A stretch of DNA of 64,000 bases from Escherichia coli (lineage in GTDB: Bacteria; Pseudomonadota; Gammaproteobacteria; Enterobacterales; Enterobacteriaceae), in the NCBI RefSeq assembly GCF_003334355.1, contig NZ_QOWP01000003.1; one strand, 5' to 3'. Below the pieces are notes generated by a model. That model saw only the letters and a list, made by a program, of their open reading frames with translations. It did not search any database and had not been told where the DNA came from. Position 1 is the stretch's first letter. Every line of letters starts with the position of its first letter. Shown piece by piece: positions 40,622 through 40,930 of the stretch. A program made the translations under genes and the position numbers.

Positions 40622-40697
40622 TGGAGCGGGAAACGAGACTCGAACTCGCGACCCCGACCTTGGCAAGGTCGTGCTCTACCAACTGAGCTATTCCCGC
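40622..40697 (-). tRNA. glyV: tRNA-Gly (GCC anticodon)
   Basis: Reverse complement matches GCGGGAATAGCTCAGTTGGTAGAGCACGACCTTGCCAAGGTCGGGGTCGCGAGTTCGAGTCTCGTTTCCCGCTCCA. Confidence 0.95.
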
Positions 40698-40854
40698 TTA
40701 ATCTTCGTCTTTCGAACCGCTACTGCCTTGGCTGCCTTCACTCACCTTAGTCACATACTTTTGTAAGTTCCCAAGGATTCGTTCAGTTGCCGCCTTGTCG
40801 CAATTCGAAATACTGCGATTGGGTGGTCTGTGCTTTGCAGCACTTTTCAAATTT

Positions 40855-40930
40855 TGGAGCGGGAAACGAGACTCGAACTCGCGACCCCGACCTTGGCAAG
40901 GTCGTGCTCTACCAACTGAGCTATTCCCGC
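40855..40930 (-). tRNA. glyY: tRNA-Gly (GCC anticodon), second identical copy
   Basis: Identical 76-nt sequence in direct repeat 233 bp from the first copy. Confidence 0.95.

Follow-up and report, generated by a model that had tools for sequence, protein, structure and literature searches.

The subject of this analysis is a short array of glycine tRNA genes in Escherichia coli, lying in a stretch of 64,000 nt (contig NZ_QOWP01000003.1 of assembly GCF_003334355.1) that is referred to here as the window and whose own positions are used throughout. When ARAGORN is run on 38000-44000, it reports two tRNA-Gly(GCC) genes and no more, each on the minus strand, and an exact-match scan finds that the two 76-nt copies are identical and are separated by a spacer of 157 bp (40698-40854). 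An Rfam search at E<=1 over 39000-42500 returns nothing besides these two tRNAs, and neither ARAGORN nor Rfam at this threshold detects a tRNA-like fold in the spacer, where Rfam likewise recognizes no other family. In these respects the locus is as an initial annotation, made from the letters of the window, had described it, that is, two perfect copies on the minus strand at 40622-40697 and 40855-40930 with a 157-bp spacer devoid of any tRNA-like fold. Chance cannot have produced two identical 76-mers at a distance of 157 bp.

As shown by their open reading frames and the matches of these to annotated E. coli genes, orn and rsgA neighbour the array on its promoter side; the opposite side holds queG, nnr, tsaE and amiB. 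The array has the same orientation as orn and sits between orn and queG/datA, which is the site of glyVXY. The 751 bp around it are 99.6% identical to E. coli EC45, and a match is present in all of the 5426 complete E. coli genomes searched. Because of the orn/rsgA and queG/nnr flanks, and because of the matches in every complete genome, the region is the E. coli glyV-glyX-glyY operon, in the form of a rare but ordinary allelic variant of known parts. Starting from the promoter-proximal end, these parts are the following.

40855-40930, minus strand: tRNA-Gly(GCC), promoter-proximal copy, equivalent to glyV (ARAGORN; Rfam RF00005, 69.1 bits; adjoins orn, as annotated glyV does)

40819-40854, minus strand: conventional 36-nt glyV-glyX spacer segment, with an A/U-rich start AAAUUUGAAAA, a small hairpin GUGCUGCAAAGCAC, then ACCACCCAA

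40698-40818, minus strand: ERIC/IRU (RU-1) miniature inverted repeat of 121 bp (clean block relative to K-12-type genomes; consensus match; hairpin)

40622-40697, minus strand: tRNA-Gly(GCC), terminal copy, a glyX/glyY recombinant (ARAGORN; Rfam RF00005, 69.1 bits; alignment with five annotated genomes)

The 157-bp spacer and its ERIC element

The anatomy of the array was obtained by aligning the window with five annotated E. coli genomes. In K-12 MG1655, as in most E. coli, the copies stand three in tandem, with spacers of 36 and 35 bp and no ERIC, much as the initial annotation had put it (three copies, spacers of about 35 bp), whereas the window has two copies and one spacer of 157 bp. Next to this K-12 type (glyV-36 nt-glyX-35 nt-glyY) there is a second common allele, glyV-157 nt-glyX-35 nt-glyY, and the arrays of the window and of EC45 correspond to this second allele less exactly one unit of tRNA plus 35 nt, or 111 bp. 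The terminal tRNA is flanked upstream by the sequence that precedes glyX, and downstream by the sequence that follows glyY, in three-copy ERIC-bearing genomes.

The spacer itself consists of 36 nt (AAATTTGAAAAGTGCTGCAAAGCACAGACCACCCAA), identical to the entire glyV-glyX spacer of K-12-type genomes, and one block of 121 bp that reaches up to the 5' end of glyX and stops 0-2 nt short of the next tRNA, the junction being ambiguous by a dinucleotide AA. The K-12 operon and the window therefore share the chromosomal site, the tRNA-Gly(GCC) sequence, the probable promoter bases, the downstream flank and the first 36 nt of the spacer, and they differ in having three genes and two, respectively, and in the 121-bp ERIC, which is present only in the window.

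Judged by its sequence, the 121-bp block is an ERIC/IRU element, i.e., a repeat that resembles the MITEs, transposable elements of the miniature inverted-repeat kind. Blastn against the published E. coli ERIC consensus, the 127-nt ERIC/RU-1 sequence given in Table 1a of PMC2759123, gives 77.7% identity over 103 nt (E=1e-18), and in a local alignment with the consensus 90 of 120 columns are identical, with a score of 121 compared with 23.8±4.8 (maximum 44) for shuffled sequences. A search with the consensus finds this block as the sole ERIC in the window. A sensitive blastn search with the spacer gives related sequences of 72-79% identity at other intergenic sites of E. coli genomes, for example between puuR and puuC in K-12 and between queA and acpH in Nissle 1917. 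The block aligns end to end with both of these copies, which carry the target of the ERIC1R/ERIC2 primers, and the Nissle queA-acpH copy closely matches the ERIC1R/ERIC2 core. The ERIC2 primer has no match in the window at up to 3 mismatches, the copy in the gly array having 4. When the 157-nt spacer is folded, the whole block forms a hairpin, with a minimum free energy of -46.6 kcal/mol and z=-3.6 relative to dinucleotide shuffles.

Apart from the canonical termini, the block thus shows what defines the family: similarity to the consensus, a suitable length with a long stem-loop formed by an imperfect palindrome, and dispersed intergenic copies in transcribed regions. ERIC stands for enterobacterial repetitive intergenic consensus, and ERIC/IRU/RU-1 elements were reportedly described by Sharples & Lloyd in 1990 and by Hulton et al. 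in 1991 as 127-bp, MITE-like imperfect palindromes. The block, at 121 bp, shares with the family about 75-78% identity to the consensus over nearly its full length, including the ERIC1R/ERIC2 core, as well as the long imperfect hairpin, an extragenic place within a transcription unit and dispersed relatives in the same genomes. It differs from the family in its diverged termini, in the lack of a TA duplication in E. coli and in a core specific to this locus, where the paired segments read CCTTGGG/CTAAGG instead of the CCCCAGG/CTGGGG of the consensus. Its ends are AATC...GATT, flanked by A/AA, compared with the canonical TATAC...GTATA, and in some genera they read TAATC...GATTA; these termini are compatible with a diverged, old ERIC copy. 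The location also differs, in that other ERICs lie between protein-coding genes and this one sits between two genes of a single tRNA operon, where both its position and how often it occurs follow from unequal crossing-over of the array. In the literature searched we found no description of an ERIC in glyVXY; key ERIC surveys were outside reach, so an earlier description is possible.

Two events very probably explain the allele in the window, one old and the other recent. In the old one, the ERIC, which lies in the first spacer immediately upstream of the tRNA that follows, would have entered the array before the divergence of the enterobacterial genera; since then it would have shared the fate of its repeat unit, being retained, lost, shifted or duplicated with it. 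In the recent one, unequal homologous recombination, with the identical 76-bp tRNA genes as its partners, would have removed a single 111-bp unit (tRNA plus 35-bp spacer), so that glyV-[36+ERIC]-glyX-35-glyY became glyV-[36+ERIC]-glyX/Y. The recent, lineage-level change is the missing copy only.

Conservation, structure and possible function of the ERIC RNA

The orn-linked region was taken from representatives of 80 enterobacterial species. In these, orn is followed by arrays of one to four tRNA-Gly(GCC) genes, and 171 of the 174 copies are identical to the tRNA of the window. Sixteen spacers of 139-158 bp, found in 15 species, all align with the window spacer at 74-96% identity; the species are E. 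coli, six Citrobacter, Leclercia, Klebsiella oxytoca, Enterobacter asburiae, Kluyvera, Silvania, Superficieibacter, Buttiauxella and one further enterobacterium. Depending on the species, the ERIC occupies the first spacer, the second, or both. A contig of Salmonella Infantis also carries the gly-spacer ERIC, at 87.9% identity. In about ten other species the spacers measure 63-94 nt; they lack the core of the ERIC hairpin, which they have lost, but retain its base (AATCRCAGGATTTC...GAAAGACGAAGATTAA), and the best-preserved part of these spacers is GAAAGACGAAGATTAA, next to the 5' end of the tRNA.

Between E. coli and the other genera the ERIC is 76-91% identical, whereas in the same comparison the orn-glyV intergenic region reaches 63-74%, the stretch of 200 nt downstream of the array 61-73% and the third codon positions of orn 55-66%. 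RNAalifold, applied to the orthologues, predicts 38 pairs in which 98.1% of the cells are paired, and nine of these pairs have compensatory double changes. These values are reached by none of 500 shuffles, and slid controls give 0-1 compensatory pairs. The structure is specific to one strand, with 62 G-U cells vs 4 A-C cells, and the tRNA-sense strand folds at -39 to -46 kcal/mol compared with -20 to -29 for the antisense strand. Conservation extends to the unpaired columns, where it amounts to 0.88 in the ERIC and 0.64 in the adjacent 5' spacer. Taken together, the excess of conservation, the covariation, the strand-specific structure and the conserved unpaired columns indicate that the ERIC of the gly array is under constraint as part of the tRNA-sense transcript.

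What this transcript may undergo can be sketched from K-12, where glyV, glyX and glyY form one transcript from the promoter PglyVXY (PMC10950094) and where RNase E cuts 1 nt after glyY, a cleavage that needs a single-stranded spacer 5' of glyY together with an adjacent upstream tRNA (PMC4191395, PMC9841416). By analogy, the array in the window would be transcribed from PglyVXY as a leader, the first tRNA, a spacer with an A/U-rich site, a small hairpin and the ERIC hairpin, the second tRNA and a trailer. RNase E would cut in AAAUUUGAAAA, the A/U-rich single-stranded stretch after the first tRNA, and RNase P at the 5' end of each tRNA, which for the terminal one lies two nt beyond the base of the ERIC hairpin. 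The ERIC would fold into a hairpin of about 120 nt, a spacer of about 150 nt would be released as a by-product, and the same tRNA would be made from two genes here instead of three. For the window we infer the co-transcription, these processing steps and any effect on tRNA dosage. The terminal tRNA of the window is preceded by a structured hairpin, and glyY of K-12 by a single-stranded 35-nt spacer with an adjacent tRNA; without both of the determinants of 3' cleavage used in K-12, the terminal tRNA is therefore predicted to undergo altered maturation. Beside this prediction stands the observation that the two-copy ERIC form shows no excess rarity in the population data.

An account that concerns function only, and that is compatible with the structural account given above, is that the ERIC has become a domesticated, selected RNA module, acting as a sponge or regulator RNA, as a platform for processing by RNase E and RNase P, or as a brake on read-through into datA, the locus downstream of the array. 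The conservation above that of the flanking non-coding DNA and of the third positions of orn, the compensatory pairs and the strand-specific structure would all be expected of such a module, and so would the conserved unpaired columns and the retention, in species with internal deletions, of the hairpin base next to the tRNA. The dependence of the K-12 cleavage 3' of glyY on its spacer and upstream tRNA (PMC4191395, PMC9841416) and the regulation of IHF binding at datA by read-through from PglyVXY (PMC10950094) point to processes on which the hairpin might act.

On the other side, the element is dispensable, given that 70% of E. coli, including K-12, and most of the sampled species live without it; it matches no Rfam family; and the loss of tRNA copies on the two backgrounds, for which the numbers are given below, betrays no fitness interaction. 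Slow evolution with compensatory change may, moreover, be generic to ERIC copies, since Wilson & Sharp reportedly described in 2006 slow evolution and structural constraint for ERICs generally. On balance, we regard domestication of the ERIC as unlikely. The fuller proposal, namely that the ERIC was co-opted long ago as a structured module of the pre-tRNA and has been kept across the Enterobacteriaceae by selection on the transcript for a specific role, is put forward tentatively on the basis of the comparisons above, and we consider it distinctly unlikely.

Two known systems help to show what such a role might look like. The first is that of the tRNA spacers that act as sponges of small RNAs, for which the 3'ETS of glyW-cysT-leuZ and the internal spacers of metZ-metW-metV are the precedent reportedly described by Lalaouna et al. 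in 2015. A spacer of the 3'ETS-leuZ type, once excised, builds up as a stable RNA and pairs with small RNAs or mRNAs, usually with Hfq. Like 3'ETS-leuZ, the ERIC spacer is a non-tRNA segment that would be co-transcribed with tRNAs and freed by RNase E and RNase P, and it is likened to this type also by its conservation beyond the neutral expectation, the likeness here being drawn from conservation and structure. It differs in its origin from a mobile repeat and in being dispensable in most strains.

The second system is found in Yersinia, where ERICs control the stability of transcripts through the ribosome-dependent exposure of an RNase E site in the mRNA, as the work of De Gregorio et al. 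2005 is summarized in PMC2229807 and PMC3184786. As far as these summaries go, the two cases have in common the position within an operon, an RNA structure that depends on orientation and a link to RNase E, and they differ in that the neighbours of the element are mRNA in Yersinia and untranslated tRNAs here.

Allele frequencies, copy loss and the age of the insertion

The frequencies of the different arrays were determined in the same 5426 complete E. coli genomes. With a query of 217 nt, consisting of the ERIC spacer and 30-nt flanks, and a threshold of at least 80% coverage, the ERIC-bearing spacer is found in 1607 genomes (30%), usually followed by glyX, a 35-bp spacer and glyY, while all others cover 45-47% of the query, which corresponds to the short spacer. 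A query of 201 nt that runs from the ERIC through the terminal tRNA into the downstream flank finds coverage in only 27 genomes, among which strain A39 has two ERIC units, so that the arrangement of the window occurs in about 26 genomes (0.5%). Two-copy arrays without the ERIC are present in about 80 genomes (1.5%), and two-copy genomes of either type make up about 2% (105 by a synthetic two-copy query, 107 in the initial search). A 431-bp query for the three-copy array was uninformative, with repeated pieces being joined and 5418 of the 5426 genomes exceeding 80% coverage. The loss of a tRNA copy amounts to 1.6% on the ERIC-bearing background and 2.1% on the ERIC-free one (Fisher p=0.33, phylogeny not corrected for). 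It is thus no rarer on the ERIC background and gives no sign of a fitness interaction.

These data also show how far the locus of this strain is rearranged, as the initial annotation had supposed, naming a copy lost by recombination between repeats or spacer sequence of other origin. Both possibilities have been borne out. Alignment with the reference glyVXY loci resolves the locus into the 36-nt spacer and the 121-bp block, less one unit of tRNA plus 35 bp; compared with the common ERIC-bearing allele, then, one 111-bp unit is absent, a loss for which recombination is the probable mechanism, and the extra 121 bp is the ERIC/IRU repeat identified by alignment and consensus match. The missing copy is indeed a departure from the common state, the two-copy form with the 157-bp spacer being found in only about 26-27 of the 5426 genomes. 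The 157-bp spacer, on the other hand, is not special to this strain, being shared by 30% of E. coli and by other genera.

Unequal recombination between the tRNA genes, which are identical, is the best explanation of the missing copy. Such recombination would gain or lose units of 111 bp (tRNA plus short spacer) or of 233 bp (tRNA plus ERIC spacer), and products of both kinds are seen. In E. coli A39 (NZ_CP028737.1; 1263-1804 of the retrieved locus) the array reads tRNA-157-tRNA-157-tRNA, with the 233-bp unit tandemly duplicated and both spacers identical to that of the window, and Citrobacter youngae has the same double-ERIC layout. Strain W (NC_017664.1) has three copies, whereas its engineered derivative KO11FL (NC_017660.1) matches the two-copy array perfectly, which suggests either that a copy was lost within the time scale of laboratory culture or that the assemblies differ. 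The flanks of EC45 differ from those of the window by 4 mismatches in 2400, those of ETEC4077 by 52 and those of the O111 strain EH2252 by 28, so that the two-copy ERIC arrangement stands on at least three flank haplotypes; as those of ETEC4077 and EH2252 are clearly different, the arrangement must have had at least three origins or have been transferred by recombination. The duplications in A39 and C. youngae, the pair formed by W and KO11FL, and the haplotypes all fit unequal homologous recombination between the 76-bp repeats.

Several points weigh against the two-event explanation. The E. coli copies show neither canonical ERIC termini nor the TA target duplication; the mechanism of the deletion is deduced from its end products, no intermediate having been observed; and simple unequal crossing-over does not explain the exact absence of the 121 bp in arrays of the K-12 type, with their distinct spacers of 36 and 35 nt. 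Furthermore, the collapse of a tandem repeat in the assembly could in principle mimic a lost copy.

If such a collapse of the 111-bp repeat had taken place, the real genome would read glyV-[36+ERIC]-glyX-35-glyY. Identical 76-bp tandem genes are generally known to collapse in short-read assemblies, and the three-copy ERIC form outnumbers the two-copy one about 60-fold. The same two-copy form, however, recurs in independent complete assemblies, namely in EC45, with its near-identical flanks (4 mismatches in 2.4 kb), in a clade of O111 and bovine strains that includes about ten related bovine isolates and O111:H8 strains, and in ETEC4077. Two-copy arrays that lack the ERIC add the roughly 80 complete genomes counted above, and a period of 111 bp is easily spanned by ordinary reads. 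We consider an assembly artefact very improbable.

As to the other event, the 121-bp block might be a recent transposition into this strain, or different lineages might have received it independently at an insertion hot spot. ERICs count among the MITEs and are regarded as mobile (PMC3184786, PMC2229807), and the presence of the block varies within E. coli. Nevertheless, at least nine genera share the CCTTGGG/CTAAGG core, the AATC...GATTAA ends and the same position relative to the tRNA, and the elements of the gly locus are 78-97% identical to one another and 70-78% identical to the ERIC consensus. A near-identical donor is likewise absent elsewhere in E. coli, where the next best copies are those of 72-79% identity. 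The shared derived core and termini, together with the closer mutual identity, make a single old insertion far likelier than repeated ones; on the same derived characters, independent insertion at a hot spot was rejected, and recent or repeated entry is left as an extremely improbable reading.

That the spacer is the remnant of a phage or island integrated at tRNA-Gly, or a decayed fourth tRNA, can be dismissed as having next to no chance of being right, for although tRNA genes are, as is generally known, common integration sites at which part of the tRNA is duplicated, and although sequence of other origin had been raised for the spacer from the start, both tRNAs are full-length with only 157 bp between them, an integrase and foreign genes are absent, the flanks share synteny with all E. 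coli, the spacer has no tRNA-like fold by ARAGORN or Rfam, and a search of phage collections gave only contigs of bacterial chromosomes and ERIC-like fragments, including the orthologous gly spacer of Salmonella. Several records in these phage collections are ordinary contigs of the Salmonella chromosome (150-690 kb), and matches to them are no evidence of phage origin.

The promoter, the datA flank and the meaning of the variant

Further features of the region concern the start and the end of the transcript and the locus beyond it.

40988-41015, minus strand: probable glyVXY promoter, with -35 TTGCAG (41010-41015), a 16-nt spacer and -10 TATAAT (40988-40993), followed by the GC-rich discriminator GCGCCTCCC

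40506-40530, minus strand: terminator-like hairpin (ACAGCCTCAGGCTGT, 40516-40530) with a T-rich tail, about 92 nt past the last tRNA (terminator scan)

40528-40536: DnaA-box match TGTGGATAA, in datA

40459-40471: IHF consensus TATCAATAGGTTA, in datA

40366-40374: DnaA-box match TGTGAATAA, in datA

PglyV-X-Y has been described experimentally (PMC10950094), and the TTGCAG/TATAAT bases at 40988-41015, as read from the sequence, are probably this promoter; with their 16-nt spacing, they are unchanged in six of six aligned E. coli alleles. A scan with the consensus promoter missed them, as the -35 matches at 3 of 6 positions only, and the prediction by the same scan of no promoter or terminator within the spacer is accordingly weak. 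The window has a private substitution at 40937, 7 nt upstream of the 5' end of the first tRNA, where the plus strand reads T in place of the C of every E. coli allele compared; the substitution lies within the 5' leader that RNase P removes.

At the other end, the 270 bp from the array to queG are the datA locus, and the glyV-X-Y terminator/attenuator is located upstream of its IHF site (PMC10950094). The hairpin at 40506-40530 is our candidate for this attenuator, TglyV-X-Y. Also within datA, the RefSeq annotation has a 'hypothetical protein' of 17 codons (WP_010723271.1, yjeV in K-12), which overlaps the end of queG and is placed at 40335-40388 on the minus strand by correspondence with an annotated genome; the promoter of yjeV has been placed over DnaA box 7 of datA (PMC10950094).

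The short spacers of the array have a structure of their own. Ordinary spacers of 33-38 nt hold a small hairpin, which folding predicts in the window as well (40829-40842, minus strand), and whose stems vary among genera yet stay complementary: GUGC...GCAC, GUAUC...GAUAC, GGCU...AGCC and GGCC...GGCC. It is flanked by a conserved start, AAAUUUGA, which recurs in almost all of the enterobacterial spacers examined, and by a CACCCAA end. RNAalifold returns no consensus structure from a MAFFT alignment of these 33-38-nt spacers, in which the co-varying stems are visible by eye.

For annotation and typing, the practical consequence is that the copy number and the spacer length of glyVXY vary, and that K-12 is not a universal reference for this operon. 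Since IHF binding at datA, and hence the initiation of replication, is reportedly regulated by read-through from PglyVXY (PMC10950094, published in 2024), variation in the array upstream could matter for datA. The window also offers a worked example of how tandem tRNA arrays evolve, with a repeat that has been carried through the history of the enterobacterial family. If the ERIC was indeed co-opted, its presence or absence in E. coli would be a functional polymorphism, and, among natural variants, the arrangement seen here, in which the terminal tRNA directly follows the ERIC, would be the most telling one. Should the hairpin prove functional, it would be a case of a MITE that became domesticated within a tRNA precursor, and the read-through transcription of its operon is already known to regulate datA, the adjacent replication-control locus downstream.

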